A stretch of DNA of 49,389 nucleotides from Minisyncoccota bacterium (GTDB taxonomy: Bacteria; Patescibacteriota; Minisyncoccia; UBA6257). The notes beneath the pieces were generated by a model. It made no database searches and was not told where the DNA came from. It worked only from the letters and a program-made list of their open reading frames with translations. Positions within the stretch are counted from its first letter, which is position 1. Every line of letters begins with the position of its first letter. Shown here in pieces: positions 8,600 through 49,318 of the stretch. Location of the stretch: assembly GCA_028695015.1 (NCBI GenBank), contig JAQVJR010000002.1, positions 66,706 to 116,094 on the forward strand, written 5' to 3'. Made by a program: the position numbers and the translations under genes.

Positions 8600-8619
8600 A
8601 ATGCTAAATGATTAATAAG

Positions 8620-8690
8620 CTGCCGGGCAGGGATTCGAACCCCAATTTCCACGTCCAGAGCGTGGCGTGCTACCATTACACCACCCGGCA
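8620..8690 (-). tRNA. tRNA-Gln(CTG); CCA not encoded
   Basis: Acceptor TGCCGGG/CCCGGCA (U1-A72, typical of Gln), anticodon loop CTCTGGA, T arm GGTTCGAATCC. Confidence 0.95.
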
Positions 8691-8699
8691 ATAGATTAG

Positions 8700-9791
8700 T
8701 TATAATTCTTCACTAATACCTAATTCAAAAGGCAAAGTGGGAATAGGTGTTCTTCTTAATTGAGTTTGTATCTCAATAAACCTTTTAAGTAATTTCTCTA
8801 AAAATGGTGTATCAAAGAGTTCAGCTTGTTTAAATAAAATTGTCATTTCATCACTAGTTGCCTCTTTTTCTAAAATCTTACCTAAAGAAGGAGAAATTTT
8901 CAATAAAAGAATTTTTCTTAAATAATTTAAAACTTCCCTGTTAAACACTTCCAAATCATAACCTTCATCAAAAACATTATTAATAAACTCTAAGGCTTTT
9001 TCTTTGTCTTTTTTACCAAGAAAAACAATAAACCTTCTTATTCTTTCAAAGTTTATAGCCCCAATCAAATTTTCTACTGACTTTTTAGTAATATTTTGAT
9101 TAGTAATCAAGGAAATCTGACCTAATAATGATTGAGCATCTCGCAAACCACCTTCTGAATACAAAGCAATTAACCTTAAAGCTTCTTCTTCAAACTTTAT
9201 ATCTTCTTGCTTACAAATAGATTTCAAACAACTAATAATATCATCTAAATTCAATTTTTTAAAATCATAACGCTCTACCCTAGAAAGAATAGTTGCTGGT
9301 AATTTATCAGGCTCTGTGGTTGCAAAAATAAAGACAACATATGAGGGCGGTTCCTCTAGAGTCTTCAACAAAGCATCAAAAGCATCTTTTGTCATCTGAT
9401 GAGCTTCATCAATGATAAAAATCTTGTATTTGGAACTTACAGGTGGGAATTTAATATTCTCTCTTAAAGAACGAGCATCATCTACCCTGCCACTAGAAGC
9501 AGCATCAATTTCAATTAAATCCAAAGCATTTCCCAAATTAATAGCTTTACAAGAATCACACTGGTTGCAAGGTTCAAATTGATTAGATTTTCGATTTTGG
9601 CAATTTAATGCCTTAGCTAATAAACGAGCCACTGTTGTTTTACCAGTGCCTCTTAAACCAGAAAAAAGATAAGCATGCGAAATTTGACCATGTATAAGGG
9701 CATTGGCCAAAGGCTTAATAACATTTTTTTGATTAATTACTTGGGCAAATGTTTGTGGTCGATATTTTCTGTAAAAAACTAATTGAGACAT
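8700..9791 (-). CDS. dnaX: DNA polymerase III subunit gamma/tau (short form)
   Basis: YRKYRPQTF, Walker A GLRGTGKT, C-x-x-C zinc site, DEAH, LLKTLEEPP, GGLRDA. Confidence 0.95.
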   Translation of the reverse strand: MSQLVFYRKYRPQTFAQVINQKNVIKPLANALIHGQISHAYLFSGLRGTGKTTVARLLAKALNCQNRKSNQFEPCNQCDSCKAINLGNALDLIEIDAASSGRVDDARSLRENIKFPPVSSKYKIFIIDEAHQMTKDAFDALLKTLEEPPSYVVFIFATTEPDKLPATILSRVERYDFKKLNLDDIISCLKSICKQEDIKFEEEALRLIALYSEGGLRDAQSLLGQISLITNQNITKKSVENLIGAINFERIRRFIVFLGKKDKEKALEFINNVFDEGYDLEVFNREVLNYLRKILLLKISPSLGKILEKEATSDEMTILFKQAELFDTPFLEKLLKRFIEIQTQLRRTPIPTLPFELGISEEL

Positions 9792-30709: not shown

Positions 30710-32233
30710 TCATAATGCAAGACTTAAATTAAAAGTAACTCCTTCGGTAGTCTCTACTAAACCAGAAAGAGGTAAAGAAATATCAGCAAACAAACCAGTT
30801 AATCCTAAAGAATCTTTAAAAGAAATAATTGATTCTTTAATTGAAGAATTGCCTTGAATAGTGATATTGTTAGCTGGTTCTGAACTGATAAACACCCTTT
30901 TTATATGCACTGAAGATTGATTGGCATTATCAAAAATTGCTTCTAGGACATTCTTCCAGTCTTTTTGATATTTTTCAATATTAGAGACCTGAGCTACTAA
31001 TTTATTAAATTCATTAGCCGCTTCTGTTAAATTAGCCTCTTTATCGACTGTCTTTTGTTCTAAAGGCTTGGCAATTGCTAATTGATATTGATTCTCAATA
31101 TCTAAAAAGAAAAAATTACTAATTAACCCTAAGGATAGCACCAAAGCAATTAGAACTGCAATTATTGCCTTGCTCCATAAAGAAACTAATCTTAAGAGTT
31201 GGTGTTGTTCGTAGCTTTGTTCAGTACCCACAGGAGCCAAACTAACAATTGTATCCTTATTTCGCGGAATAAGTCCTCTTAGAGCTGCACCTAGAACTCC
31301 AAACCAGTCACCACTTATTTGTTTGAGATGAGAAGGCAGCTTTGTCTCCCCAGGTACTAATTGATACTGAACTTGAATCCATCTTTTCAAAACATTGGCT
31401 AATTGATTATTAAAACTGAAAAATACAAATTTCTGAAGAACTTTCTTTCTTTTTAAAGAATAAAAATTCAACAAAACAGGTATTTCACAAGAAATATGTT
31501 TTTTTAATATGTCAAAGGTAATTTGTTTTGGAATGTCTTTGCCAAAAATCTCTTCCCAAGAATCAAAATCAAAATAAATTGTTTTTTCACCTTCAGCAAT
31601 CACAAACTCAATACCTTCAGGCCTTAAATCAATTATTAGGACCGGTTCTTCTTTTTCTATAAACTTATTGTTAAAACGAGCCAAAGAAACTGCCAATGGC
31701 TCTACAGCCACCACATTAAATCCAGATTCTTTTAAAATTTCCAAATATGGATCAATTTGTTTTTTAACTCCCAAAGCCACAAAAACCTCTTTTTCTCCAT
31801 TTCTATTTGCTACACCCCAATCTTCCCAATCAAAATAAGATTCTTCTAAAGAAAGAGGAGCCACCATTTGAGTATTAAAAACTATGGCTTCATTAAATCT
31901 TTCTTCTTCTAAATCTGGTAGATTAAAGATATGAATAAAGAAATTAGCAGAAGGCAAAGTTAAAATAGTCCAAATTGTTTTTTCTTTTGGCCAAAGTTTC
32001 TTATACAGAGAATTAAAAAAAGACTTTAAATATTCTGGCTTTTTTAAAATCCCTTCTTCTATTATCCCCTTAGGTAAAGCATATTTTCCCCACCTAGCAA
32101 TTCTTTCAATTTTTTTATCAAAACAAAAAACTCTTACCACTCTATCTTCAATGCTAATAGCATTAACTGTAAATTCAGGAACTAATAATTTATGCCAATC
32201 TTTTGAAGAAAACTTATGTTTCATATTTTTCAT
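30710..32233 (-). CDS. Type IV pilus assembly PilM-PilN-like fusion protein (probable true start 32224)
   Basis: N-terminal actin-like PilM region (LPKGIIEEG, VAVEPLAVSLAR, IIDL), one TM near aa 355-380, coiled coil, PilN-like C-terminus (ITIQG, LFADISL). Confidence 0.7.
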   Translation of the reverse strand: MKNMKHKFSSKDWHKLLVPEFTVNAISIEDRVVRVFCFDKKIERIARWGKYALPKGIIEEGILKKPEYLKSFFNSLYKKLWPKEKTIWTILTLPSANFFIHIFNLPDLEEERFNEAIVFNTQMVAPLSLEESYFDWEDWGVANRNGEKEVFVALGVKKQIDPYLEILKESGFNVVAVEPLAVSLARFNNKFIEKEEPVLIIDLRPEGIEFVIAEGEKTIYFDFDSWEEIFGKDIPKQITFDILKKHISCEIPVLLNFYSLKRKKVLQKFVFFSFNNQLANVLKRWIQVQYQLVPGETKLPSHLKQISGDWFGVLGAALRGLIPRNKDTIVSLAPVGTEQSYEQHQLLRLVSLWSKAIIAVLIALVLSLGLISNFFFLDIENQYQLAIAKPLEQKTVDKEANLTEAANEFNKLVAQVSNIEKYQKDWKNVLEAIFDNANQSSVHIKRVFISSEPANNITIQGNSSIKESIISFKDSLGLTGLFADISLPLSGLVETTEGVTFNLSLAL

Positions 32234-32270: not shown

Positions 32271-32929
32271 CTAATCCCTAGCTCTTAAAAGAATCTTATT
32301 GCCATCAGATGATGTATTAAAGTAATTATGGGAAGATTGTGTTAAAAAATTTTCATTTAATATATTTTTTCTCAGTTTATACGTATTACAATGTTTTATT
32401 ATGCCCAAACAAAAATTAACACTGGAAAGAAATTGTCTCATTTCTTCTTTACCAAGCCTAAATTGTCTTTTGATTATAAAAGAGTCCCAAGAATGAATCA
32501 CCTGATAAAATTTTTCTTGATTCGGTTTCTGATATAAACATAATAAAGCTTTATTGCCATACCAAGAAAACTTACGCCCTTAGAATAATACTGGAGATAG
32601 ATTTTGTTCGGATGAAGCTCTAAAAAGAGATCGTTTTGTAAATATTGCCTAAAAACTAATTTGATGTCTTTAAAATATTTCTTGCCTTGATGCATACCAT
32701 CCACATAGCGACCATAATGCTTAATTCCAAGACAGTTTTTAACAAATATGCCAAAATCATTTAAATAAACATTGCCAAATAATCATTAAGTAAGGTTTCT
32801 TATTAAGAAGCTTTTGTTATTTTCAGCAAAAAACAAACTTTTGTTTTTAAACAATCCTTCCTAAGTCTTTCGTGTGCCAAAATAAACCCGAAACAGGTCA
32901 TAAAGAAATTATTTATCAAAAGGTTTCAT
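32271..32929 (-). pseudogene. DGR-type reverse transcriptase pseudogene (large internal deletion, stops, frameshift)
   Basis: One frame from ATG 32929 reads MKPFDK*FLYDLFRVYFGTRKT*EGLFKNKSLFFAENNKSFLIRNLT**LFGNVYLNDFGIFVKNCLGIKHYGRYVDGMHQ...LELHPNKIYLQ...GVSFLG. This is a decayed LPIGNLTSQLFGNVYL / RYVDD / LHP.K / FLG series. The C-terminus (FLSSVNFCLGIIKHCNTYKLRK) is in ORF 32271-32501. Confidence 0.88.
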
Positions 32930-32936
32930 AAAAAAG

Positions 32937-33112
32937 TTAGTCCTTAAGACAGTGAACTAAGTTGCCGTTCGCATGATTATTGGTATTTATGTTAACATTA
33001 CTGCTATTGAAATTCGAGTCCTGAGTATTTGTAGTAATAACAGCAACGCTCCAATAGTTTTTATGCTCCCAATATTGTTAAGCGATCTATTGCTGTAATG
33101 CTAGTTGCCGCC
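32937..33112 (-). repeat. DGR template repeat (TR), decayed
   Basis: Non-coding 176-nt copy of the last 177 nt of gene 33656-34888. It is collinear except for one 1-nt gap and rich in AAY codons (…AAC TAT TGG AGC…AAT TTC AAT AGC AGT AAT GTT AAC ATA AAT ACC AAT AAT CAT GCG AAC GGC AAC TTA GTT CAC TGT CTT AAG GAC TAA). Confidence 0.88.
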
Positions 33113-33274: not shown

Positions 33275-33615
33275 TTATTTTTGCGACCTTTGCCAAGCTG
33301 ATAACTACTTAAAAGCTTTTTCTATTTGTTTATTTGCACCAATAAACCTACGCAATCCTACTTATTTAAATTTAAAATCCCTAGCCAATATAAAAAACAT
33401 AGTTGCTTCTATTTTTTCCCGAACCTCTCCTAGGTGTGGTTTTTTATTAAATTGCTGTTAACTCAATTAGTGCAAGTTATCATTTTAATTATTTCTTTTA
33501 TCACGCTCTTTCCTAAAATATGTTTGTATTCACAATTAAATTCTTTTATCGGAATATTTTAAGAACCAAATTATAGCTTATTCTGTATATCGGAAAGTGT
33601 AAATAAGTAATTATA
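33275..33615 (-). pseudogene. avd: DGR accessory variability determinant (Avd, four-helix-bundle) pseudogene
   Basis: Frames pieced together give HFPIYRISYNLVLKIFR..KEFNCEYKHILGKSVIKEIIKMITCTN*VNSN..KPHLGEVREKIEATMFFILARDFK..LRRFIGANKQIEKAFK*LSAWQRSQK*. Length (about 113 codons), position and the LSAWQ end fit Avd. The start coordinate is approximate. Confidence 0.75.
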
Positions 33616-33655: not shown

Positions 33656-33832
33656 TTAGTTCTTGATGCAGCGAACCGATTGGCCGTACGCACGACCAAA
33701 AGCATTCATACTAGCACTACTACTGTCGAAGCCCAAGTGCTCAGCACTAGTACCGCTAATAGTAGAGCTCCGATAACGTCCGCGGCTCCCAGCAGCGCTA
33801 ACCCCTCCCGTGCTGTAATCCCGGTAGCCGCC
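33656..33832 (-). repeat. DGR variable repeat (VR) at the 3' end of the target gene
   Basis: Aligns codon for codon with TR 32937-33112; about 55% GC (98/177, manual count) in an AT-rich window. Confidence 0.85.
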
Positions 33833-34888
33833 CATTGTCAATTTAAGAGGACTTGCATATGCTCCATTGTTATTTTTACTTACCCAAGAATTTAATTCAG
33901 TTTGCCATTCTACTGCAGTTGGAATACGCCATCCTGGGGGACAAGGGTTATTTATTCCATCAACCCCTTGCCAGAGATTATTATTTTGAGGGTTTCTCCA
34001 GTCGTTGGGGCTAGAACTATGCAGAATGAAATTACTATGCCCAGGAGTATCAGAGCTTGAACGAGTAGAAGTTGTCCCACTAGTTCTTGATTGATGTCCA
34101 TCATCTAATCTTCCCCATTGAAATAAATCTCCATAGGCATTTGTATCAGTAGATGAAATAGCTACTCTAGAAGCTCCTAAGTTTCTATCCATCCAGCATT
34201 TGCCTTGACTTTCTACTGTGCCATAGGTTACAGAAGATCCTTTGTATGTGAAAGTAACTGCGCTTTCGCCACACAAAAATGCCCCAACATTTACTGTTAC
34301 CGAGTCACTTGTTTCTCCTCCTGATCCAGCACAAGTAATTGTATAGGTTTTTGCACTAATTAAGTAATCTGTTAATTCACTACCAGAAATATCTTTTGTA
34401 CCTGACCAATTGCCAGATGCTTCACAAGAAGTAGCGTTTTCAGAAACCCAAGACAATGTAGCTACTGAGTTATACGGAACAGAAATTGGGCCATTTGAAT
34501 CATTGGCTTTAATGCTTACAGTAGGAATAAAAATTTCAATTATCAAATTCCATATTTGCCCATTGCATATTTCTAATTTTTTTTCCTGTCCACTCGAAAC
34601 ATAACGAATAGCACCTTCTGTGTCATTGCCACAAGTTGTTTCACTACCTATCTTTATAGCTCCAGCCACTTCTAATTTTGTTTTTGGAGAAGTAATGCCA
34701 ATACCCACATTTCCGTCATTATAATAAATATCTGAACCAGAAGTAATCCATTGACTAAAACTAGGTACAATATTTCCACTCGGTGGATCTTGTGTTGGAT
34801 ATGTCCAGGAAATAACATAATTTCCTGTTAAAAATATTACTAAACTCCAAGCTAAGATTGTTGAATAGATAAGATATTTTGTTTTCAT
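33656..34888 (-). CDS. Surface protein: TM/signal, GNVGIG repeat unit, Ig-like domain and FISUMP (Fib_succ_major, C-type-lectin-fold) domain; DGR target
   Basis: IYYNDGNVGIGITSPKTKLEVAG; TLSW.S.NATSC.ASG.WSG; CWMDRNLGA, YGDLFQWGR, CPPGWRIPT..EW, SVRCIKN. Confidence 0.85.
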   Translation of the reverse strand: MKTKYLIYSTILAWSLVIFLTGNYVISWTYPTQDPPSGNIVPSFSQWITSGSDIYYNDGNVGIGITSPKTKLEVAGAIKIGSETTCGNDTEGAIRYVSSGQEKKLEICNGQIWNLIIEIFIPTVSIKANDSNGPISVPYNSVATLSWVSENATSCEASGNWSGTKDISGSELTDYLISAKTYTITCAGSGGETSDSVTVNVGAFLCGESAVTFTYKGSSVTYGTVESQGKCWMDRNLGASRVAISSTDTNAYGDLFQWGRLDDGHQSRTSGTTSTRSSSDTPGHSNFILHSSSPNDWRNPQNNNLWQGVDGINNPCPPGWRIPTAVEWQTELNSWVSKNNNGAYASPLKLTMGGYRDYSTGGVSAAGSRGRYRSSTISGTSAEHLGFDSSSASMNAFGRAYGQSVRCIKN

Positions 34889-35025
34889 GATTTTAAGTAT
34901 TGATAAATTTTTTAAATTTCAAGCTGTGATTTTAAAAATCTATTAACTATATACTTTTTTATTCTCCTGCTATAAGTAATTTATTTTCTTAAATCAAATG
35001 TATCTCTTGTGACATGCCACAGAGA

Positions 35026-35390
35026 TCACTTCTTAATTCTACTGATAGTACCCACAACTTTACCATCATATCTTAATTTTGAAATCTAAATTATATTGTC
35101 TCTATTTATTTCTATTTTATCTATAGGGTCAAATATTGTATCTTGGAGTTTGTATAAATTATAATCACACCTAGCTCACTTGTGCTTCCTTACAAAAGCC
35201 AAACCACAGGCAAAATAAATTTTGGAAAACGAAATATAGTTTCAAAATACATATCGCCTGTTTTAAAATACACTACGTAATAAGAATTTTTGATAACTTT
35301 TATTTTATCTGTATATGAAAAATAAATTAAAATTATTAATAAAATTATAGCAATTGTTAAGACTATTTTAAAAGGTTTATCTTTGTTCAT
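35026..35390 (-). pseudogene. Disrupted small membrane-anchored protein
   Basis: The ORF (YYVVYFKTGDMYF) stops at 35190, but homologous-looking sequence continues after a frameshift (…DPIDKIEINRDNII*ISKL…) with a TGG-to-TAG-like stop. Confidence 0.55.
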
Positions 35391-35610
35391 GGTATTATAT
35401 AAATTATCTAAACTTTAATATTTGATTCCAGTATAGCATAAATTAAATTGCCAACATAAATACATCATGTAATTTAAATTGAGAATAATTAATTAAGCAT
35501 TTTATATATGGAAAAAGAATATTGATACTTATTTAATTCTATTTAAAAATCAAATTCAAAACTTCTCAACATTCATTATTATCTATTATTTCTTTATATT
35601 TTACATGCCA

Positions 35611-37371
35611 TTATTCATCTAGTATACAACGAATTGCCATTCCGTGTCCATTTGTATCATTAGTTTTTATTATAGCGCTGGTAGAATCAAATGCTAGCAT
35701 TTGCGCAAATCCTCCTGCCAGTGTTGTTGTCCAGTATCGCCCAACTATACCTTCACCTTCAAATATTGCACCATCTTTGCGATGACGATAATATGTTACG
35801 GGTAATTTTAATGAACTTCCAAAGGCGCCAACTGAATTCTTTGTTCCCCATGAATCTAATTCATTATCCCATTCATTTGATGTTGGCACTCGCCACCCTT
35901 CAGGACAAGGATTATTAATACCATTTACTCCTTGCCAGAGGTTGGGATTTTGAGGACTTCGCCAATCATAGGGAGACGCAGCTGGGGTTATAAAATTACT
36001 ATGACCTGGATTATCAGAACTAGAAAGTATTGCTGTCATTCCGCTTGTCCTTATTTGATGACCATCAGCTCCTCTTCCCCACTGAAAAAGATCCCCATAA
36101 GCAGAAACATCATTAGATGAGCCAGCTATTCTTGAAGCTCCTAAATTTCTATCCATCCAGCACTTATTTTTACTCAAAACCGTACCATAGATTTCAGAAG
36201 ATCCTCTGTATGTGAAAGTAATGCTATTCCCACAAGCCCAAGGAGGTAAAGTAGTTGTCGTAGTAATAGTGGTAGTGGTAGTGGCAATAGTGGTAGTGGT
36301 TGTTGTAGTGACAGGAACAAAAACTAAAGAAGATGAGCCTAAACTAAACACAAAAGTATATAAACGTGAAATATTTAATTCTGGTTTTGAAGAATTATAT
36401 TCAAGATTTAATTCTATTTTAATAGCTGAAGTCGACATTCTTAAATCCTGAACTTTATAATCTGAAACCGAACAAATGCTGTACCCAACACAACCATCTT
36501 TATTAGGTATTTCACAACCTGTTTTACAATTAAAACTAATCCACCCTATATACTCAGACCAAGCATAACCATCAAATTCCCCTGTTTCTGGATCTACAGC
36601 CACTCCATAATTCGTTGCATTGCAAATATTTCCTGAATTTGCACCACCTGTGACACAAGAAAAAGAAACCCAACCATAATTTTCAGACCACCCCCATCCT
36701 TTTAATTTTCCATCTTCATCTAATGAAACTTTATAATCCACACTTGCACAAGAATTAGTAGTTAGACAATTAAGAGCAATCCAGGACTTATCAGATAGAA
36801 TATATGCGGCTCCTTTTAATTCTCCTGTTTTTGTTGGCACTTGAACATTCCCACCAGGGTAAGTAAAATCTATCCAACCTACATTTCCTGACCAAGCGTA
36901 GTGATGAATATTTGAAACATTAGTTGTTTCTGGACCAGTAGGAGAAAACATTAAAGAAGCTACTTTCACTTTTGCTTTATTATTTAATCCTACCGAGCTT
37001 CCTTTTCCTTCTTGCAAAAAAATAGTTTCATCAATTAAACTAAATTCCGTAGGGGTTTTTTCCCCTTCATCCATTTCTAGTTTTAGAAAAGAACCACTAA
37101 TTGATTTAATCCTTTTTGCTGCTTGTATCTTCTGGCGCAAAACTTCTTCTAATATCATTGCTTGATTACTTAGCTCTTCTTCAACTCGCACTTTCTGATT
37201 CGAACGATTAACTGTATAGACAATACCAGTAATCAGTCCCGCACTGATAACCAAAATACCAGAATAAATAAGAAGTTCCATTAAGGTAAAACCCTTATTT
37301 CTATCAAGGTTTTTCTTTTTATAAATAAACATATTTAAATTATATAATTTTAAAACTTTAATAACTACCAA
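35611..37371 (-). CDS. Prepilin-type protein with WSxxxGWIxF repeats, Thr linker and C-terminal FISUMP/CLec domain (likely start about 37332)
   Basis: KG|FTLMELL class III signal (E5); YAWSGNVGWIDF, WGWSENYGWVSF and YAWSEYIGWISF repeats; poly-Thr; CWMDRNLGA...CPEGWRVPT...MAIRCI. Confidence 0.85.
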   Translation of the reverse strand: MVVIKVLKLYNLNMFIYKKKNLDRNKGFTLMELLIYSGILVISAGLITGIVYTVNRSNQKVRVEEELSNQAMILEEVLRQKIQAAKRIKSISGSFLKLEMDEGEKTPTEFSLIDETIFLQEGKGSSVGLNNKAKVKVASLMFSPTGPETTNVSNIHHYAWSGNVGWIDFTYPGGNVQVPTKTGELKGAAYILSDKSWIALNCLTTNSCASVDYKVSLDEDGKLKGWGWSENYGWVSFSCVTGGANSGNICNATNYGVAVDPETGEFDGYAWSEYIGWISFNCKTGCEIPNKDGCVGYSICSVSDYKVQDLRMSTSAIKIELNLEYNSSKPELNISRLYTFVFSLGSSSLVFVPVTTTTTTTIATTTTTITTTTTLPPWACGNSITFTYRGSSEIYGTVLSKNKCWMDRNLGASRIAGSSNDVSAYGDLFQWGRGADGHQIRTSGMTAILSSSDNPGHSNFITPAASPYDWRSPQNPNLWQGVNGINNPCPEGWRVPTSNEWDNELDSWGTKNSVGAFGSSLKLPVTYYRHRKDGAIFEGEGIVGRYWTTTLAGGFAQMLAFDSTSAIIKTNDTNGHGMAIRCILDE

Positions 37372-37383
37372 TATAGCTACAAA

Positions 37384-38343
37384 CTACGGACTCCAGTTTA
37401 TTATTATGTCTTCTACTTTTGGAGAAACTCCAATAGTAGAAAGATAAATTTTATAGCGTATATAGCGATTATTTTGAGGACTAGCTGAATTAGTTACTGG
37501 AAAAGCGTAACTAATGTTTGGATTTGGCTGATACCAGTCTTCTGTAGAGCTTGGTCCATAATATTGCCAAGGACCTGAGGGAGAATTTGAAAAAGCAATT
37601 TGAAATTTTACATCACCTCCTGAATTAAAAGCACCTAACCATAGAAAAGAATTATAACCAGCGCCACTATCTATTCCTGTATCTAAGACAGAAGAAATTA
37701 ATTCAGCATTAGAAGTAGTTGTAGCCATTGTAATTTGACCACTTGTATTAAAATCTATGTTTATAGCAGAATCAAATCGATTACCAGGATTAGGAATAGG
37801 GCCTTTTTGCCCATCTCCTTCAGACCAATCAAATTGATGAAAAGTCTGATTATTAAAAGAGCGCACTAGATAAAAAGAAAGAGAAGTTGAGTCAATATAA
37901 TCATGGCCATAATTTAGAAAAATGATTACTTTTTGTGTATTTAAATCATGCTCATCCCCTATTTCCACTATCTCACCATTAGCATCTCTAAAAACATCAT
38001 AAACCTGAAAATATCTCAAAAAAGGAATGTTGTTAATGTGGCCCTCTTCTTTCCCTGCATTAATCACCCAGTTATTTTCAGATAAGTCTATCCAATAATC
38101 TCTTTGTTTCTCTAAATCGTAAATAAAATGCCAATTATTCCTGGCTAAAGATTGAATTGCTTCGGCTTCTTGTCTCATTAAAAAATCTGCTTGTAAAAGC
38201 TGCTTCGTGCTATTATAACTATTTAATGAAGCTCCAATCAAAACTGCTGAGCCACCTACTAAAATAACTCCGACTCCAATTGCAATAAGAATCTCAATCA
38301 AGGACTGAGCTTTCATTTTATAATTCTTAATCTGTAAATTCAT
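37384..38343 (-). CDS. Minor pilin-like protein
   Basis: KA|QSLIEILIAI prepilin-like N-terminus, YFQVYDVFRD, and a C-terminal beta domain (RYIRYKIYL). Confidence 0.75.
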   Translation of the reverse strand: MNLQIKNYKMKAQSLIEILIAIGVGVILVGGSAVLIGASLNSYNSTKQLLQADFLMRQEAEAIQSLARNNWHFIYDLEKQRDYWIDLSENNWVINAGKEEGHINNIPFLRYFQVYDVFRDANGEIVEIGDEHDLNTQKVIIFLNYGHDYIDSTSLSFYLVRSFNNQTFHQFDWSEGDGQKGPIPNPGNRFDSAINIDFNTSGQITMATTTSNAELISSVLDTGIDSGAGYNSFLWLGAFNSGGDVKFQIAFSNSPSGPWQYYGPSSTEDWYQPNPNISYAFPVTNSASPQNNRYIRYKIYLSTIGVSPKVEDIIINWSP

Positions 38344-38352
38344 ATTAAAGCT

Positions 38353-39465
38353 TTATTTGCAAGAACATGTCTTGCTTACTGTTGCCTTTTTATATGCAGT
38401 TCCTGATTTACAATCATCTCCGCTTTCATAATAACAAGGACTTTTTGACGTACATGAGTCGGTACTAAAAGACTCTCCACAATTAGCTTTTGCAGCAAGA
38501 AGAGTTAAGCTACAACTTCCTCTCCAAGTCTCAGAACCACTACTGCAACTGGCAAGAGTATAGCACCTCCTTGCATTCCCTTCTTCTGCAGAATATTTAT
38601 CACAATTAGTAGACTTTGTTGTACTACCATTACAATCATAATCCCAAGAACCACAGTTATTTGGAGTTGTGTAATAGCTAGTCTGACCTGGTCTTGCTCG
38701 TGAATCTGAGTCACAACAATCAGTTCCTGATAACTGAGAAGAGGCTTGGCATTTTTTTGTTCCAGAAGAAGGTGCATAGCGATCTCCATCATTATCTACA
38801 TAGCAATAGCCTGAAATACACTCACTTCCTGAAGAGCAGGTTGACCCATTGGCTTTTTTTCTAGTGGTTGTGGTTGTTGCCTTTGTAGTAGTTGTCGTGG
38901 GCTTAGTTGTGGTAGTTGTTGTAGTAGTAGTGGTGGTGGTGGTAGTCGTTGTTGTAGTAGTTATGGTAGTAGAAGGAACTGTGGTTGTAGTGGTTGTAGT
39001 GGTTGTAGTGGTTGTAGTGGTTGTAGTGGTTGTAGTGGTTGTAGGACCTGCATAAGTCGCTATTGCTATTTCTTTAATTTTTATAGGCACTATTAATCCC
39101 GTAATCCCTATATCCACTGTAGCTTCTATTCCTTTATGCACCTGTCCTATAACCGCTTCGGAATAGATTGTAGCACTATTTCCTGTATTTAAAACTACAA
39201 TCCTGACGTCATTGACATCATTAATGCTTAAATAATATTCCTCAGAGAAGTCTTTATTTCTTTCTAATTTAATTAAAGAATCTTGAATTCCTGAAAAAGC
39301 AGCATAGTAAGCTTTTAGGTTCTTTTGATTAGTATCTAAATTTTGAATACCCCAGAAAGTTAAAGTAGCAGTTGATAAGCCAATAATAAAAACAAGAGAA
39401 CCAAGGGAAATTACTGTGATTAATGCAGCAACTCCTTTTGATAAGTATTTTTTTCTAAAAAACAT
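38353..39465 (-). CDS. PilX/PilK-like minor pilin with long Thr stalk and Cys-rich tip
   Basis: KG|VAALITVI (no E5, PilX-like), KAYYAAFSGIQD, a long Thr-rich run, Cys-rich C-terminus with DNDGDRY...DCCD...PG. Confidence 0.75.
   Translation of the reverse strand: MFFRKKYLSKGVAALITVISLGSLVFIIGLSTATLTFWGIQNLDTNQKNLKAYYAAFSGIQDSLIKLERNKDFSEEYYLSINDVNDVRIVVLNTGNSATIYSEAVIGQVHKGIEATVDIGITGLIVPIKIKEIAIATYAGPTTTTTTTTTTTTTTTTTTTTTVPSTTITTTTTTTTTTTTTTTTTTTKPTTTTTKATTTTTRKKANGSTCSSGSECISGYCYVDNDGDRYAPSSGTKKCQASSQLSGTDCCDSDSRARPGQTSYYTTPNNCGSWDYDCNGSTTKSTNCDKYSAEEGNARRCYTLASCSSGSETWRGSCSLTLLAAKANCGESFSTDSCTSKSPCYYESGDDCKSGTAYKKATVSKTCSCK
38981..39043. repeat. Perfect tandem repeat (GTGGTTGTA)x7 encoding poly-Thr
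   Basis: 63 nt of exact 9-mer copies, read directly from the sequence. Confidence 0.95.
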
Positions 39466-39494
39466 AAAGGTATTTTATAAAAATTTGCTAAAAA

Positions 39495-40118
39495 CTATGA
39501 CCCAGGATTCATCGCCTGGTTTCTTCTGATAATTTGAATGTATTTAGCTATAAATTCATCCTTGTCTTCTATATAATTTTCTACTGAAATAAATACATGA
39601 TCTCCCTCTGCAAGATCTTCAAAATGCATAAATTGTTTTTTTAGAGGCTCAATTGAATCCTCTTTTCCTGTATCTTTAAATACAAATATTTCTGTTGTTC
39701 CTAAAATTTTTACTGCTAAAACTTGTTTCCCTATTTTCTCTACAGGAAATTGTCCTAAACGATTAAGCTCTTCTAAATTTTCATCTATTTCCATTGGTTT
39801 TATCATTTCAATTTTTAGATGATTGTCCTCTATTTCAATTATATCTCCATCTATTGCTTCTAGGTTTTTTGGTAATATAGTCTCTCCTAAAATATCAAAA
39901 AATTCTTGGGTTTCAGTAAAATCATTTTGCTCCTGTTGTTGATTTTCTACAATTAAAGATGCTCTATAAGAAGTTATCATTAAAATAACTTCAACTAGGA
40001 TAAGGATAACTAAAGAAGCAGTGATAGATAGAAATATTGATTTTTTATTCATGTTGTTAAATAGTTTTATTATTAAAATAGTTTTTCCTGATTTTATTAT
40101 GGGCAAAACATAGTGCAC
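39495..40118 (-). CDS. Hypothetical membrane-anchored protein (likely start MNKKS)
   Basis: One TM and an acidic beta-rich domain; embedded in the pilin cluster. Confidence 0.65.
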   Translation of the reverse strand: MHYVLPIIKSGKTILIIKLFNNMNKKSIFLSITASLVILILVEVILMITSYRASLIVENQQQEQNDFTETQEFFDILGETILPKNLEAIDGDIIEIEDNHLKIEMIKPMEIDENLEELNRLGQFPVEKIGKQVLAVKILGTTEIFVFKDTGKEDSIEPLKKQFMHFEDLAEGDHVFISVENYIEDKDEFIAKYIQIIRRNQAMNPGS

Positions 40119-42310
40119 TTATATTGATCATAATCTGCATTCTCATAAAGCAAACCTGTTGTGTAACTAGTGGGGTAAGCTCCTGTACAAGACTGCCAAC
40201 TTCCTGGAAAGTAAGTTGTTATCACATCTCTAAATTCATATGTGCAAGGCGCAACAGGTCCCCACGACTTAATTTTAGCCTTTATTGTTTTATAATAAGT
40301 CCATCTCAAGTAACAACACTTACCTTCATGACACACATCGCAATACTCACCACATCTTGTACCGCCACCGTAATTACCGCAACTTTGACTAGAGCTATTG
40401 CATACCCGAACACCTGTACAAGGCCCACAGGTAGCTTTCGTTTGTGTGCAATAATCACTACAAGGAGGATCGGAAACGGTGCCATCTGCTAAACAAATCC
40501 TATTTTGACTACTATAATAACGATATCTACAATAATCTGTGCCCGTAGGAGAATTATCTCCATCTATATAATAATAATTATTACTAGAGCAACTTTTTAC
40601 TGACACCACTTTCCCAGGATAAATATTTTTATTATTATCATCACAATCTACCCCTGCAAGCTGCGATAGAGGCTGACATTTTTTAGTTCCTGAGGAGGGA
40701 GCATAACGATCTCCATCATTATCAACATAGCAATAATCAGATAAACATTGATCTGCTGAAGTACAAATAACTCCATTGGCTAATTTGTCTGGTTTTGTTT
40801 TTGCTGAATTAATGCTACCAATAGATATATTTCCTACTTTATCATAAGCACAGACACGATAATAATAAGTTGTTTCATCTGCTAAATCTGTATGAGTATA
40901 CGATCTTTCTGTCCCTAAGTAAATTTGAGTACCATCAGTACAATTAGCAGAAGGGGTTCCACTCATAGAATATACTAATTTATAAGTACCACTAGAAGCT
41001 AAACCTGAACCAGGGCCATCTGAAGCGGTTTCCCAAGAAAGAGATACTTTTTCCATATCAGGAATTGCTGATAAATTACCATCTATTGGTGCCTGTCTGT
41101 CTTGCCTAATCCTTTTATAATAAGCTTGACTAGTATTGCCTACTTTGTCTTTACTTTGATATCTAATATATTGAACACAGGTACTCCCAGGCTCACAAGA
41201 AATTGTAACGGGACTAGTGTAACTTATAGATGGAGAACAAGTATTTCCTGTATCCACGCAATATTTTATAGAATCTACTCCTGACCCATCATCATTACAA
41301 CCCATGCTCACATTAACTGAAGGTGCGGTAATCCAATCTTCATCTACCCAATTATCAGAGCAAGTCGGACTTTTTGCATCAACAGTTTTTATTATAGGAC
41401 TACCTATTCCTATCCCCCCTTCACTAGTAGCTCTCATATTTAAAGTTAAATTTGCCCTATCTTCAGCTACTATCCCAAGTTTACTACAAGTATACTGAGG
41501 ACCAGTACCTGATATTGTAGCTTCATGCCAATCACTTCCATTAACTGTATATTCACAAAAAGCAAGCTTTCCTTCAGGTTCATGAATAGTAGTTGATAAC
41601 TTAAAAGGGCTACTAACATAAGAACCAAAAGATGTATTAGAGGCAATAATTTCTCCTATTTCAGGAGGGGTAAAATCTAACTCCCCGCAAATCCCTATAT
41701 CCTCATTGTAAGTAATTAATCCCTGTTTGCATACAACAATATTTGCTGTTTTCCCAGTAGCATCTTCTAAGATTATTTGTTGGTAGGGTTGCTGTGGATA
41801 TGAACCCCCAAGAGATAGAAACCCAGTTAATGATTGGAACAAAACATAAACATGGTCATTATCTTCTGGAGTTTGATATTTTATACCTGAAGGCAAATAA
41901 TGCCTTTCTGTTTCTGTAATCACTCTAGCAAAGGCATAAAAAGGACGGAAAAATGACAAGATTTTATCCTTAATTATCTTAACTAAATTATAATTATCTT
42001 GAAAAGCTCCAGAATCAGGATCAAAATTCAAAGTATAAAAATTCCCTTCTTCTAAAGAATTTTCAAAACGAACTCCCCATTGCCCACCTTGTTCTTGAGC
42101 AATTGATTTTTGTTGTGCATATCTAAGAAACCCTACTATTTCCTGGACCGTATTATCTAACAACTTAACTCTTTGTTGACCTACATATGAAGAAATACCA
42201 ACTCCAGCTATTGTTGCGGTAAGAGCAATAACTATTAAAACTTCTAATAAAGTAAAACCAAAGACTCTTTTTTTAAAACTTAATCTTTGTTTTAATAATT
42301 TAAATTTCAT
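40097..42310 (-). CDS. Large prepilin-type adhesin: pilin head, Ig-like domains, FN3 and Cys-rich tip
   Basis: FG|FTLLEVL (E5); LRYAQQKS; Ig-like segments with YQSKDKVGN; FN3-like LSW...TYYYRVCAYD.VGN; Cys-rich C-terminus. Confidence 0.82.
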   Translation of the reverse strand: MKFKLLKQRLSFKKRVFGFTLLEVLIVIALTATIAGVGISSYVGQQRVKLLDNTVQEIVGFLRYAQQKSIAQEQGGQWGVRFENSLEEGNFYTLNFDPDSGAFQDNYNLVKIIKDKILSFFRPFYAFARVITETERHYLPSGIKYQTPEDNDHVYVLFQSLTGFLSLGGSYPQQPYQQIILEDATGKTANIVVCKQGLITYNEDIGICGELDFTPPEIGEIIASNTSFGSYVSSPFKLSTTIHEPEGKLAFCEYTVNGSDWHEATISGTGPQYTCSKLGIVAEDRANLTLNMRATSEGGIGIGSPIIKTVDAKSPTCSDNWVDEDWITAPSVNVSMGCNDDGSGVDSIKYCVDTGNTCSPSISYTSPVTISCEPGSTCVQYIRYQSKDKVGNTSQAYYKRIRQDRQAPIDGNLSAIPDMEKVSLSWETASDGPGSGLASSGTYKLVYSMSGTPSANCTDGTQIYLGTERSYTHTDLADETTYYYRVCAYDKVGNISIGSINSAKTKPDKLANGVICTSADQCLSDYCYVDNDGDRYAPSSGTKKCQPLSQLAGVDCDDNNKNIYPGKVVSVKSCSSNNYYYIDGDNSPTGTDYCRYRYYSSQNRICLADGTVSDPPCSDYCTQTKATCGPCTGVRVCNSSSQSCGNYGGGTRCGEYCDVCHEGKCCYLRWTYYKTIKAKIKSWGPVAPCTYEFRDVITTYFPGSWQSCTGAYPTSYTTGLLYENADYDQYKCTMFCP

Positions 42311-42320
42311 AATATTTGTT

Positions 42321-43532
42321 TTAAAATTGTCCTACTAATTGATAAACTGGCACTATTAATGAAAGAGCTATACCACCAACCACAGCTCCTAGAAAGAGCA
42401 ATAGTAAAGGCTCTAACATTGAAACTAAAGTTTTTAATGAACCTTCAATTTCTACCTCATAAAATTCAGAAAGAGTTCTTAAAATTTCTTCTGTATGTCC
42501 AGCTTTTTCACCAATGGCTAAAAGATTAGAGACCACTGCTGGAAAAATTGTTTCTTTTTTAAAAGAATCACCAATACTTAATCCTCTAGCTAAATGTTCT
42601 TTTGCAATCCTGTTTAAAGCTGATTCATATTTAGGATGACCAACCGCTCCAGCAGTAATTTCAATTGCCTGAATAATTGACATTCCAGCCCTGATTAAAC
42701 TGGATAAAACACTAGCAAATCTTTCCAAAGCCATTTTTTCCATTAAATCACGAGAAATAGGAATTTTCTCTAATAAATTCGCAAATAATTCCTTTCCTTT
42801 AGTTGTTTTTCTAAAATATAAGAACAAACCCACTGGAATACCAATAATAATTGGTAAAACCAAGAAAATATTTCTGTTTAAAAACATGCCTGCAGATAAA
42901 ACCACTTTTGTAAATGTAGGAATTGCCTGTCCAGTGCCTAAAAACATTTCTCCTAATTTAGGCACAGCAAAAGTCACTAAAAAGAGAATCATAAAAAAAG
43001 AAGCAATCATTAAAGCAATCGGGTAAACCAAAGAAGATTTTACCTTGGTTTGTAAATTCCTATCTCTTTCCATGCTCACAGAAACCTGCTCTAAAGTAGC
43101 TTCTAGATTACCAGAAGACTCCCCGGCTTTAATTAAATTAGCCACTACTGGAGAAAAATAATCTGGATGTTGAGCAAATGCCTTCCAAAAAGGCTCACCT
43201 TTTTCCAGATTAGTTCTTATCTCTAATAAAAACCTCCTAGCTAACCCTGATTCAAAATCCTGAATTAAAATATCTATGGCGCTGAATAAATCAGTACCCA
43301 CTTTTAACATCAAGGCCAAGTATTTGGTTAAGAAAACCTTATCGGTCAAACTAAGAGTTTTCTTAAAAATCGCTATCTCTTTTTTATCCTGTTCTAAGAT
43401 TAAGGGCTTGACTGAAAGAGGTTTTAATCTCTGAGCAGTCAAATATTCTAAAACCGCTTCAATGTTAGGTTGATTAATATTTCCTTCTTTGATATGGCCT
43501 TTTTGATCCTGAGCCAGATAATGAAACAACAT
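42321..43532 (-). CDS. pilC: Type IV pilus inner-membrane platform protein (GspF family)
   Basis: AGESSGNLEATL, KVKSSLVYP, AIGEKAG, EPLLLLFLG. Confidence 0.93.
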   Translation of the reverse strand: MLFHYLAQDQKGHIKEGNINQPNIEAVLEYLTAQRLKPLSVKPLILEQDKKEIAIFKKTLSLTDKVFLTKYLALMLKVGTDLFSAIDILIQDFESGLARRFLLEIRTNLEKGEPFWKAFAQHPDYFSPVVANLIKAGESSGNLEATLEQVSVSMERDRNLQTKVKSSLVYPIALMIASFFMILFLVTFAVPKLGEMFLGTGQAIPTFTKVVLSAGMFLNRNIFLVLPIIIGIPVGLFLYFRKTTKGKELFANLLEKIPISRDLMEKMALERFASVLSSLIRAGMSIIQAIEITAGAVGHPKYESALNRIAKEHLARGLSIGDSFKKETIFPAVVSNLLAIGEKAGHTEEILRTLSEFYEVEIEGSLKTLVSMLEPLLLLFLGAVVGGIALSLIVPVYQLVGQF

Positions 43533-43542
43533 AAATATGTTT

Positions 43543-45249
43543 TTATTCTTTAATAACTCTTAAAACTTCTTCAATGGTTGTTAACCCTAATTCAGCTTTT
43601 TTCAATCCATCTTCAAACATTGATTTAGTTCCTTGAGCAAAAGCTATTTGTTTTAAACCATCAAGAGAAAAATCACTTTTTTGGATATAGGCTCTTACTT
43701 GTTCAGTAATATCTAAAATCTCATAAATAGCTAAACGACCTGAATAACCAGTACCCCCACATGCTTGACACCCTTTTCCTCGATATAATTGCTTAGCATG
43801 ATATGGAGAAGCTGTTTTGCCTTTTATTAATTGCAATTGTTCATTCACTACCTTAATAACATCTTCTGGTACCTCATAGCTTTCAATGCAGCCACGACAA
43901 ATTCTCCTAACTAATCTTTGAGCAATTATCAAATTAACAGTGGCTGAAACTAAAAAAGGAGGTACATCTAAATCAAATAATCGAGGCACTGCGGTCACTG
44001 CATCATTAGTATGCAAGGTAGAGAGTAAAAGATGACCAGTTAAAGAAGCATGAACAGAAATTTCTGCTGTTTCCTTGTCTCTAATTTCTCCCACCATAAT
44101 CACATCTGGGTCTTGTCTTAAAAAAGCCCTTAAACCATTAGCAAAATCTATTCCTGCTTTAGGATTTATCTGAGTCTGATTAACATATCTCAACTCATAC
44201 TCTATTGGATCTTCAATGGTTACAATATTAACCTCAGGTTTATTAAGTTTATTCAAAATCGCATACAAAGTAGTAGTCTTTCCTGAACCAGTAGGTCCAG
44301 TAACCAAAATCATGCCAGTGGTTTTAGTAATATTATTCTCAACTATCTTTACTGTTTCTTCCATCATTCCTAATTCTTGAAAACTCATTGGTTTTGAAGA
44401 ACCTGTTAAGAGACGCATTTCTACTTTTTCACCATAAAGCGTAGGCATAATAGCCACCCTGATATCAAAAATTGTATCTGCGTATTTGTATTTAAATCTT
44501 CCGTCTTGAGGTTTATTATGCTCATCAATAAGCAAATTTGATAAAATTTTAATCCTAGCCACAATAGCTAAATGGATTTCTTTAGCTAATCTTATTATCT
44601 CCCTTAAAACCCCATCAACTCGAAAACGAATCAAAATCTCATCACCTAAGGATTCAATATGAATATCGGTGGCATTTAAAGAAGCTGCATAAGAAATAAT
44701 ATTATCAGTTAAAGAAACAATTGGAAATTCAGTGGCTGCCTTTTCTGCTTCAACCTCTTTTAATCTCAAAGAAGAACGAATACTTTCCTGAATCATTTTC
44801 TGAAAATCTTTGGAAACTTCTTTTCCATATTGAGCAAAAACAAATTTTAAATCTTCTTCTAGGCATAAATGGGGTTTAATAAAATAACCTGTATATTTAT
44901 TCAAAAAATCTAATGTTTCCAAATTGGCTGGATCAAGCATTGCTACCATAATAGAATTATCTTCTTTACCAAAAACAACCACATTTCTTGTCTGGGCTAT
45001 TTCTTCAGGTAAAATATTAAGTATTTCTGTATCAATTTGCTGACCAACTAGTTTAATCCTGGGAATATTCAAATGCTTAGATAGAATATCTGCATAAAAA
45101 TCAGTGGTAATAAAATTACGAGAAATCAACAAGTCAATAATATTTTTTTCTGTTCTTTGAGCTTCTAAAACTAATTCGTCAAAGTCTTTCTCGCAAATTA
45201 ATCCTGTTCCTAAAATCAATTTTTTAAGAGTTTGAAGAGGCAAGCGCAT
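43543..45249 (-). CDS. pilB: Type IV pilus assembly ATPase (GspE/PulE family)
   Basis: ATDIHIE, PQDGR, TGPTGSGKTTT, TIEDPIEY, RQDPDVIMVGEIRD, TGHLLLSTLH, CxxC...CxxC. Confidence 0.95.
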   Translation of the reverse strand: MRLPLQTLKKLILGTGLICEKDFDELVLEAQRTEKNIIDLLISRNFITTDFYADILSKHLNIPRIKLVGQQIDTEILNILPEEIAQTRNVVVFGKEDNSIMVAMLDPANLETLDFLNKYTGYFIKPHLCLEEDLKFVFAQYGKEVSKDFQKMIQESIRSSLRLKEVEAEKAATEFPIVSLTDNIISYAASLNATDIHIESLGDEILIRFRVDGVLREIIRLAKEIHLAIVARIKILSNLLIDEHNKPQDGRFKYKYADTIFDIRVAIMPTLYGEKVEMRLLTGSSKPMSFQELGMMEETVKIVENNITKTTGMILVTGPTGSGKTTTLYAILNKLNKPEVNIVTIEDPIEYELRYVNQTQINPKAGIDFANGLRAFLRQDPDVIMVGEIRDKETAEISVHASLTGHLLLSTLHTNDAVTAVPRLFDLDVPPFLVSATVNLIIAQRLVRRICRGCIESYEVPEDVIKVVNEQLQLIKGKTASPYHAKQLYRGKGCQACGGTGYSGRLAIYEILDITEQVRAYIQKSDFSLDGLKQIAFAQGTKSMFEDGLKKAELGLTTIEEVLRVIKE

Positions 45250-48408: not shown

Positions 48409-49318
48409 CATATGCTTCCATTATTACTAATGGTATGGACTATACCATCACCCTTGGAAATTAAAATTTCAAAGGGGACCAGCGTTTTATTATTTACTAA
48501 AAATAAATAATAAAATCTTTAATATTTTTTAAAGATTAAGTCTCTACGGGGCACAAACCCTAATTTATATAACTTTACAGAATATTTACTTATATTTTTC
48601 AAAAACATACTTGCCTCTAATCTAGAAATATAAAGAGCATAAGTCCTAGCTTTCTTATATTTATATATCTTGCTGATAGAAAAACCTAATTGCTTCAATA
48701 AATCTAGATCTTTATTTGCTTCTGTCTCTGTGCTATATACAATCCGGCAATCACTTCTAAAGTCCTTGTTTATAGAACCATCTCCATCAAATCTTCCTGC
48801 AAAATAAGAATAAATATTATTTTTTTTCACTACACTTTTTATGTTTTGTCTAGATTTTATAAATAGTCTTAATAAGGGACGACTATTCACATATATATGA
48901 TAAGCAGTATGTCTAGCTTTTTTCGAAACAGAAAAAGTAGTTTTTATTCCTGAAAAATTTTCAGAAATTACTTCTCGCGTATTATTATCTCTATCCATGT
49001 TTTTATCTAACGGATAATACACTACAAGACGCAATCTTTCTTTAGGAAAATAACTTTCAAAAAACTTTTGAGAAAGTTTAATTAAATCAACATCTATATT
49101 ACTAATACCCACACTACTGCTTCTACTATAACCATCAGCACACCATAATCCCAAAATATAAGTCTCAAACTTATTTTTAGGACAGTTATATAAATTAGAG
49201 TTTGTGCTTCCCACGGTATTGCCCATTCTTTATATATTTTAACATAAAAAAAATTAGGGTTCCACCGTTATGAGCTGGTTTTTTCATTCTAAATTACTTT
49301 AGAATGGGTCGACTTTTC
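48409..49318 (-). mobile_element. Group I intron (910 nt) in 16S rRNA between E. coli-equivalent positions 1060/1061
   Basis: P1 GGUU|GA pairs with UCGACC, giving a U-G wobble at the splice site; terminal G at 48409; P3 ACCAGC/GCUGGU; P ACGGUGGAACC; Q GGCAAUACCGUGGGAAG; R GUAGAGACU; S GGUAUAGUCC; P9 CCAUU/AAUGG. Confidence 0.92.
48519..49226 (-). CDS. Intron-encoded double-motif LAGLIDADG homing endonuclease
   Basis: YILGLWCADGY and YFAGRFDGDGS motifs; uninterrupted 235-aa ORF inside the intron. Confidence 0.9.
   Translation of the reverse strand: MGNTVGSTNSNLYNCPKNKFETYILGLWCADGYSRSSSVGISNIDVDLIKLSQKFFESYFPKERLRLVVYYPLDKNMDRDNNTREVISENFSGIKTTFSVSKKARHTAYHIYVNSRPLLRLFIKSRQNIKSVVKKNNIYSYFAGRFDGDGSINKDFRSDCRIVYSTETEANKDLDLLKQLGFSISKIYKYKKARTYALYISRLEASMFLKNISKYSVKLYKLGFVPRRDLIFKKY

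Follow-up and report, generated by a model that had tools for sequence, protein, structure and literature searches.

Gene B of a Minisyncoccota genome, a probable static modular type IV minor pilin with a C-terminal FISUMP domain

Modular type IV pilins have been defined by Raynaud et al. 2021 (PMC8179133) and Shahin et al. 2023 (PMC9934059). Examples are PilB, with a von Willebrand factor A (vWA) module, and PilC, with a lectin module, both of Streptococcus sanguinis, and CofB of enterotoxigenic Escherichia coli (ETEC) (PMC8179133, PMC9934059). Such pilins have been proposed to be adhesins exposed at the pilus tip (PMC8179133). Among bacteria of the candidate phyla radiation (CPR), PilX1 and PilX2 of the Saccharibacterium Nanosynbacter lyticus TM7x are lectin-like minor pilins implicated in host binding (PMC11623550). 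Here we describe gene B and its neighbour, gene A, which lie in a stretch of 49,389 nucleotides (nt) from a Minisyncoccota bacterium (assembly GCA_028695015.1, contig JAQVJR010000002.1, positions 66,706 to 116,094), a stretch that we refer to as the window. Our view is that B is probably a static modular type IV minor pilin, bearing a FISUMP domain at its C terminus.

Domains of the same family are also known as targets of diversity-generating retroelements (DGRs), which rewrite a variable region (VR) from a template repeat (TR) by means of a reverse transcriptase (RT). DGR variable proteins of the DUF1566 / DUF823 / Fib_succ_major class form 'category d', with VRs of the CLec2 type, as in LdtA of Legionella (Wu et al. 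2018, PMC5758913). In Bacteroides, the tip adhesins of type V pili include the static BovFim1C (PDB 4EPS) and the DGR-diversified BunT, BfrT and BthT (bioRxiv 10.1101/2024.11.15.621889); the same study groups 4EPS with folds similar to its variable proteins, and contrasts this static head with the diversified one of BunT. There is also a passing mention of a VR within a pilin domain of the GspG type (PMC11661182). A preliminary description of the window had noted a C-terminal domain common to A and B and had taken the tail of B for an older or remote DGR target, giving a lectin-tipped pilus of variable specificity.

Gene B and the domain it shares with gene A

The N terminus of B carries a class III (prepilin) signal, fused directly to the remainder of the protein as had been described. 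A short basic leader with Gly at its end, MFIYKKKNLDRNKG, runs into FTLME19, which places the cleavage site between G14 and F15 and a Glu at +5, and this is followed by the hydrophobic stretch LLIYSGILVISAGLITGIV (Kyte-Doolittle 2.27). The pilin module of B is orthologous to stand-alone pseudopilins of 323-345 amino acids (aa) in relatives (55-75% identity over 55% of the query). The homologues of B as a whole fall into two classes, with the stand-alone 323-345 aa pilins matching the N-terminal 55% of the protein and FISUMP proteins matching the C-terminal 31%, and the weak NCBIfam matches are to competence pilins of the ComGF/ComGE type. AlphaFold models full-length B with a helix over residues 17-71 followed by beta-sheet. 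The predicted local distance difference test score (pLDDT) of this model, which rests on a mixed alignment, is 70-90 in the pilin module and 30-60 in the FISUMP half; Foldseek with the full-length model returned nothing meaningful, and a sequence search of B against PDB gave no match. B is thus made up of a pilin module, a linker and an extra domain that is not specific to type IV pili, the composition by which modular pilins are defined.

The extra domain is the one that B has in common with A. BLASTP aligns the two proteins at 59% identity over 205 aa (E 1e-78), reproducing the motif string from which a common C-terminal domain had been recognised in two minus-strand open reading frames (ORFs), both of which we find as described. 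The sharp divergence reported for the last 60 or so residues holds as well: 100/143 residues of the core (70%) are identical, as against 21/59 (36%) in the tail. Both proteins pass the gathering score (33.9 bits) of the Pfam family Fib_succ_major, PF09603, A with 34.5 bits and B with 37.7 bits. We take IPR011871 to be the corresponding Fib_succ_major (FISUMP) entry.

The alignment to NCBIfam TIGR02145 is near full-length (9-174 of 176 positions) and, because it covers residues 393-583 of B, the divergent tail is an integral part of the domain. AlphaFold gives the FISUMP module of B a pLDDT of 93, with the tail forming four beta-strands. The best Foldseek match of this module is 4eps, at a non-significant E of 0.2 (probability 0.72, 98 columns), and further matches are to snake C-type lectins, at E 3-4, and to a viral C-type lectin, at E 0.9. 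Across the FISUMP family, the tail columns are the most variable part (entropy 1.9 vs 1.0 bits).

The tail of B and the decayed DGR at gene A

A DGR alters adenine-templated positions only, while framework (non-adenine) positions stay as they are. Relatives are cited below by L-numbers; a metagenome scan made with the FISUMP module of B yielded 80 loci. The intact DGR cassettes of two relatives, L022 and L084, served as controls, and that of L022 also as reference for the remnants in the window. Their own TR/VR pairs mismatch at 39-48% of adenine sites and at ≤ 1% of sites elsewhere (p 1e-11 to 1e-15), and the 3' ends of their TR and VR match at 41/45 positions.

The tail of B occupies the VR-equivalent position and is far removed from the TR of the window, as the preliminary description had stated. 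With blastn there is no match between the two, and their gapped identity is at the level expected of two homologous AT-rich sequences. The mismatch rate is 29% at adenine sites and 45% at non-adenine sites (one-sided p = 0.99), and when the TRs of L022 and L084 are used instead the figures are 34-38% and 53-55% (p ≥ 0.98). The proposal that B is an older or remote DGR target therefore fails against the local TR and those of both relatives, none of which shows an adenine bias. At the shared 3' homing end (initiation of mutagenic homing, IMH), the tail and the TR are identical at 14/45 positions (stop-anchored, ungapped), compared with the 41/45 of intact DGRs. The adenine fraction (0.35) and GC fraction (0.39) of the tail equal those of B's own core, so that there is no adenine depletion, and blastn and tblastn across the window found neither a further copy of the tail nor any other TR-like sequence.

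The conserved framework of the tail provides a further comparison. B departs from it in 9 of 22 columns and A in 3 of 22; given that a DGR alters only adenine-templated positions, we attribute the framework changes of B to ordinary divergence. It is important to note that when the roles are reversed, with the tail of B as 'template' and VR1 (the variable region of A) as its target, a spurious adenine bias appears (p = 0.016), because VR1 is adenine-poor. We therefore regard the bias test as informative only where identity at non-adenine sites is near-perfect, and we do not take weak biases as evidence. Our conclusion from these tests is that the tail of B is not diversified by a DGR, and that it is a constant, integral part of the domain fold.

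Variation between strains was assessed in about 14 contigs from several independent samples, which form two strain groups (seven contigs read in group 1, six of them listed; about eight in group 2, six of them listed). The reading frame of B is unbroken in all of these contigs. An identical 573-aa B protein is encoded on group 1 contigs from several independent samples, while in the second group the pilin half differs by 6-9% and the last 63 residues differ only by K to R. Variable specificity of a lectin-tipped pilus, as formerly proposed, is thus contradicted by a tail that is invariant across the contigs apart from this one substitution.

The two modules of B have diverged to very different degrees between the strains. 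The FISUMP module shows 7 differences in 621 nt, with a synonymous divergence (dS) of 0.007, whereas the pilin module shows 102 differences in 990 nt, with a dS of 0.39 and a ratio of non-synonymous to synonymous divergence (dN/dS) of 0.13. In a sliding window against strain L007, identity is 97-100% across 36219..35472 and 81-94% in the flanks. Such a pattern suggests a recent recombination tract, or a sweep, confined to the FISUMP module of B. A recent sweep is no rescue for the DGR reading, because an active DGR diversifies its VR even where the flanks are identical. This is the case in the L088 family, where the genes of five populations (L031, L039, L048, L073 and L088) have virtually identical prepilin modules and tails that are hypervariable at discrete positions.

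Gene A is the former DGR target of the window. It has a single N-terminal hydrophobic segment, residues 9-27, which may be an anchor or a signal and agrees with the earlier description of A as anchored by a transmembrane segment. At A, the VR, avd, TR and RT follow one another in canonical order, as they do in the intact L022 and L084 cassettes. In the RT remnant, by comparison with L022, IGNLTSQ has become IRNLT followed by two stops and YVDD has become YVDG beside a 3-aa deletion, and there are a further stop and a frameshift. The TR and VR1 share 63% identity, and mismatches are more frequent at adenine sites (52%) than at non-adenine sites (29%), a residual bias (p = 0.002); the latter figure, together with a 1-nt indel, means that the TR can no longer rewrite VR1 in frame. 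The composition of VR1, with a GC fraction of 0.55 vs ∼0.34-0.40 for gene A, is a scar left by past mutagenesis.

Since avd, TR and RT have all decayed, we conclude that the local DGR is a fossil and that the variable region of A is frozen as well. The window encodes no second RT. With avd and RT reduced to pseudogenes and the TR decayed, nothing inside the window is able to diversify either A or B.

Two further observations concern gene A. The sole other variant of it in the protein collection, P0127, has one change, N395T (window ∼33703-33705), in our reading a change from AAT to ACT within VR1 at an adenine position of the TR; it is compatible either with a last DGR event or with chance. 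In addition, three independent assemblies (L002, L003 and L004) break in the FISUMP core of A, their contigs ending at residues 225-256, and these breaks may arise from strain heterogeneity or from the A/B repeat.

Module shuffling in relatives and the pilus locus

In the 80 loci, FISUMP modules occur on many N-terminal scaffolds (Table 1). The top metagenome matches to the module of B (57%) are L020, L021, L028, L042 and L085, in which it is attached to orthologues of the window's 370-aa PilX-like gene. In L020, the PilX-like-FISUMP gene is followed by an integrase-like gene. DGR components accompany some of the prepilin fusions: in L088 (86-2004) avd and a TR lie directly downstream, and L084 (1-2950) has a complete avd-TR-RT cassette, with TR/VR differences that are purely adenine-specific. 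The target in L084 is cut by the contig end, and it is 69% identical to the full-length prepilin-FISUMP protein of L036. DGR-diversified prepilin-FISUMP genes thus exist in other CPR populations (L088, L084), but not at gene B.

Most orthologues of B's pilin module stand alone, and in L007, L018 and L020 a conserved neighbour is a gene that has the A-like N-module with other C-termini. Because the pilin module and the A-like N-module both occur without it in relatives, the FISUMP head appears to have been grafted onto two neighbouring surface scaffolds. In strain L007, B is intact, A has a different C-terminus that lacks FISUMP, and no DGR is present. A scan of genome contigs with the pilin module of B gave only four distant loci, which are uninformative on polarity.

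The AWSxNxGWIxF repeat of the pilin module is also present in L018. That locus contains a 382-aa RT (8157-9305, minus strand of the locus; RVT_1 and GIIM) beside its orthologous pilin/A-like gene pair. We did not use this RT as evidence of a DGR, as it lies on the opposite strand, inspection by eye shows no motif of the DGR type, and a search of the locus for a TR/VR repeat found none.

The sister genome L013 (GCA_028694995.1; 10001-11630) has a different arrangement. Its pilin orthologue ends at a TAG past the linker, and a FISUMP pseudogene, interrupted by TAG, TAA and TGA stops and by a frameshift, follows in place. The first ∼55 nt of this pseudogene are B-like, the core is A-like, the tail is VR-like (A 0.20), and the downstream sequence matches that found 3' of VR1. 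B's tail, the intergenic region, the N-module of A, avd, TR and RT are all missing from the locus. Judged by its sequence, L013 is best explained by a recombination between the A and B modules (a deletion), followed by decay, and this recombination looks to have briefly put a VR-bearing head on the pilin. We also considered L013 as an ancestral 'DGR-targeted pilin'; this is less likely than recombinational deletion between A and B, as only ∼55 nt are B-like and the conserved A-type N-module gene has gone.

The locus itself belongs to a genome of low GC content. GC is ∼30% across the window and almost every gene is on the minus strand. The window matches contig JAQULI010000001.1 of the metagenome-assembled genome (MAG) GCA_028718665.1, the closest sister MAG carries the label Candidatus Pacebacteria (CPR/Patescibacteria), and the samples with the gene B locus include biogas and anaerobic-digester metagenomes. 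This population is present in SRR8925785, SRR22315504, SRR30309619, ERZ27247361 and JGI 3300044603, and the second strain in SRR20950113. Genes A and B sit where a type IV pilus cluster ends; the cluster opens with a pair of small N_methyl pilins, goes on with a pilB-like ATPase and a pilC-like platform protein, and then has pilin-like genes of 737, 207, 370 and 319 aa, followed by B, A and, last, a pilM-like gene.

A Cys-rich module (containing YCYVDNDGDRYAPSSGTKKCQ) is common to the 370-aa PilX-like protein (38353-39465, minus strand) and the 737-aa pilin (40097-42310, minus strand), with 61% identity over 64 aa (E 2e-22), and in both it is placed after a long poly-Thr or fn3-like region. 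P0120, a B-type pilin of another population, has a similar Cys-rich module instead of FISUMP. The minor pilins, as these three proteins indicate, exchange modules among themselves. Elsewhere in the window, among housekeeping genes, are an EcoRI-type adenine methyltransferase (702-1841), a VirD4/TraG-like coupling ATPase known from weak matches (10254-12617) and an ORF with a LAGLIDADG domain (48519-49226).

Table 1. Positions in the window of gene B, gene A and their neighbours, and loci in which FISUMP modules occur on other scaffolds.
Feature	Position or loci	Strand	Remarks
Gene B, candidate modular type IV minor pilin	35611..37371	-	586 aa from TTG at 37371; probable start ATG at 37332, giving 573 aa (gene callers' choice)
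Class III (prepilin) signal and N-terminal alpha-1 helix of B	37198..37332	-	leader MFIYKKKNLDRNKG, cleavage before F15, Glu at +5, hydrophobic LLIYSGILVISAGLITGIV; read from sequence
Globular pilin module of B	36343..37197	-	to ∼residue 330; three AWSxNxGWIxF repeats
Thr-rich linker of B (…VPVTTTTTTTIATTTTTITTTTTLPP)	36235..36342	-	7-aa indel between strains
FISUMP core of B	35797..36234	-	Pfam, BLASTP, NCBIfam, AlphaFold
FISUMP tail of B, VR-equivalent position	35611..35796	-	ordinary composition, no TR partner, four beta-strands of the domain
Small membrane-protein ORF between B and A	35190..35390	-	66 aa, truncated by a premature stop; copy of a 118-aa gene that strain L007 has intact
Gene A	33656..34888	-	410 aa; N-terminal hydrophobic anchor or signal, fibre-like N-module (GNVGIGITSP…), beta-rich middle, FISUMP domain; former DGR target
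VR1, frozen variable region of A	33656..33832	-	A 0.20, GC 0.55 in a ∼30% GC genome
avd pseudogene (DGR accessory gene)	33278..33605	-	three frame segments, internal stops; tblastn with L022 Avd
Decayed template repeat (TR)	32937..33112	-	Asn-codon rich; 1-nt indel vs VR1
DGR reverse transcriptase pseudogene	32271..32930	-	only ∼residues 196-393 of the 397-aa reference left
pilM-like assembly gene, closes the cluster	30710..32233	-	profile matches and gene context
Minor-pilin-like neighbours of B	37384..42310	-	319 aa, 370 aa (PilX-like), 207 aa, 737 aa with GFTLLE signal
pilC-like gene (T2SSF)	42321..43532		profile match
pilB-like gene (T2SSE)	43543..45249		profile match
Canonical prepilin + FISUMP	L031/39/48/73/88, L036, L066, L067, L070, L075, L087, L099		
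Orthologues of the 370-aa PilX-like gene + C-terminal FISUMP	L020/21/28/42/85		
'AWSENIGWISF' proteins + FISUMP	L052/53/55/77		
Gene-A-like N-modules + FISUMP	L026/41/82/83/97		

Interpretation and comparison with known systems

We interpret gene B as a static modular type IV minor pilin, and put the probability of this interpretation at about 0.7. In its architecture, a prepilin signal, with Glu at +5 and the cleavage site behind Gly14, and an alpha-1 helix carry a pilin module of ∼300 residues, from which the Thr-rich linker projects the C-terminal FISUMP domain. B would be cleaved by prepilin peptidase and would prime or cap the pilus together with other minor pilins. Its most likely place is the pilus tip, because its bulk is too great for the shaft and its gene belongs to the minor-pilin cluster, with pilC on one side and pilM on the other. 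The FISUMP head would then bind one fixed ligand, probably a glycan or a surface structure of a host or partner cell. We propose B as a tip adhesin because of the precedent of the modular pilins (PMC8179133) and of the lectin-like minor pilins of a cultured CPR bacterium (PMC11623550). Gene A would present a paralogous FISUMP head on a fibre-like protein that is membrane-anchored or secreted. The module itself would have been duplicated between these two adjacent surface genes, would move by recombination, and may recently have been swapped or swept between strains.

A number of points weigh against this interpretation. The match of B to N_methyl PF07963 (E 7.9e-4, 19.3 bits) falls just below the gathering score of 21.2, and TIGR02532 gave no match at E ≤ 0.01. 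Both FISUMP domains score below the curated cut-off of TIGR02145 (A 34.9 and B 37.6, against 41.65), and Foldseek with the module model found no match in PDB and BFVD at E ≤ 0.001, so that the CLec fold, that of C-type lectins, is not confirmed. No prepilin peptidase gene was seen within the window. Six of the seven differences between strains in the FISUMP module are non-synonymous, which is too few to judge by and does not demonstrate purifying selection. Furthermore, because the module is near-identical between strains, the invariance of the tail owes something to recent common ancestry, and the module may have an ancient DGR-diversified ancestry. Finally, the location of B at the tip, its ligand and its expression are all things that we infer.

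We consider it highly improbable that the tail of B is an old or remote VR, rewritten by a DGR still or until recently so as to vary the specificity of a pilus tip. Such an idea does have a basis, in that the tail occupies the VR-equivalent position of a domain family targeted by DGRs (PMC5758913), a DGR cassette lies 2.5 kb from B, tails are the most variable part of FISUMP domains, and prepilin-FISUMP genes diversified by DGRs are present in other CPR populations. However, the tail bears no adenine-biased relation to any TR tested, it has neither the shared 3' homing end nor an adenine depletion, and its framework positions have diverged. The local RT, avd and TR are decayed, there is no other TR or RT within the window, and the tail is constant over strains and samples. 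What remains of the preliminary description, then, is the pair of paralogous domains, the prepilin fusion and the VR-equivalent tail; DGR diversification does not remain, as the tail shows both the lack of adenine bias and the invariance across populations that had been named beforehand as reasons to abandon it. For the window, our analysis is mostly corrective, and the picture of a variable lectin-tipped pilus is inapplicable here.

An escape from diversification is unlikely, but less so. The module of B could be a copy taken from an ancestor that a DGR had diversified (the gene A lineage), with one selected variant hard-wired on the pilin and subject to ordinary substitution from then on. 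A is as near to the module of B as any database protein (59% vs ≤ 58%), A and B are neighbours, L013 shows that A/B recombination does put an A-type, VR-bearing module on the pilin, and divergence of the framework would be expected once the copy was free of homogenisation by a TR. Yet B's tail is without adenine depletion, the ∼30% nt divergence between the cores of A and B indicates an old duplication whose direction is not polarisable, and static FISUMP domains are so plentiful that a non-DGR origin is equally simple. A more elaborate version, which we hold to be more doubtful again, is that a specificity first found by retroelement mutagenesis on A was copied and hard-wired onto a pilus-tip pilin, and that recombination of the A/B type moves diversified heads between surface fibre and type IV pilus.

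It is improbable, lastly, that the FISUMP extension of B is decaying or functionless, or that B belongs to a non-adhesive filament such as a competence or secretion pseudopilus, either of which would leave it with no role as an adhesin. In favour of this, L013 has pseudogenised its pilin-attached FISUMP and most relatives are without such a module, the dN/dS of the module between strains (seven changes) is not below 1, and the weak NCBIfam matches are to competence pilins. The intact frame of B in every contig of both strain groups argues the other way, as do the confident model of its FISUMP module and the recurrence of pilin-FISUMP fusions in many CPR lineages. The apparent recent spread or sweep of the module between strains would, moreover, be unlikely for junk.

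CPR bacteria live attached to other microbes, and the device of attachment with the best support is the type IV pilus. Minor pilins with binding modules point to the molecules that choose the host, and B is one clear, conserved candidate adhesin of the pilin-FISUMP type. Together with its relatives it forms a comparison set, consisting of the static B, gene A frozen after decay of its DGR, the recombinant pseudogene of L013, and the actively diversified L084 and L088. In this set, one and the same binding head changes places between pilus scaffolds and scaffolds of surface fibres, and DGR diversification is gained and lost.

Of the described systems, the type V pili of Bacteroides resemble the locus in having paralogous ligand-binding heads, some static and others DGR-diversified. 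They are built by strand exchange of lipoprotein precursors, however, and not by type IV machinery; their sequences are not homologous to that of B, and the match in structure is weak (E 0.2). Gene A fits the 'category d' class of DGR targets, being a surface protein whose C-terminal FISUMP VR has avd, TR and RT after it in the order seen in L022 and L084. Unlike 'category d' DGRs, the cassette at A is dead, and B has the domain but none of the features of a DGR target.

Closer to B are PilX1 and PilX2 of TM7x, which likewise are large minor pilins with C-terminal lectin-like domains from a CPR type IV pilus cluster. Their domains, however, are a beta-jelly-roll (L-type lectin-like) and a beta-propeller rather than FISUMP, they have no sequence relationship to B, and TM7x belongs to a different CPR class. 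The fusion of a pilin to FISUMP looks to be already catalogued, the architecture IPR012902-IPR011871 being listed for 40 proteins in Dataset S1 (PMC8179133), and such fusions are common in CPR metagenomes. B differs from the known modular pilins in its unusually large pilin module of ∼300 aa with AWSxNxGWIxF repeats, its FISUMP effector and its CPR host, and it is known here from sequence and model. It resembles them in combining a class III signal and pilin module with a linker and a C-terminal effector module, encoded by a gene that lies among minor pilins.

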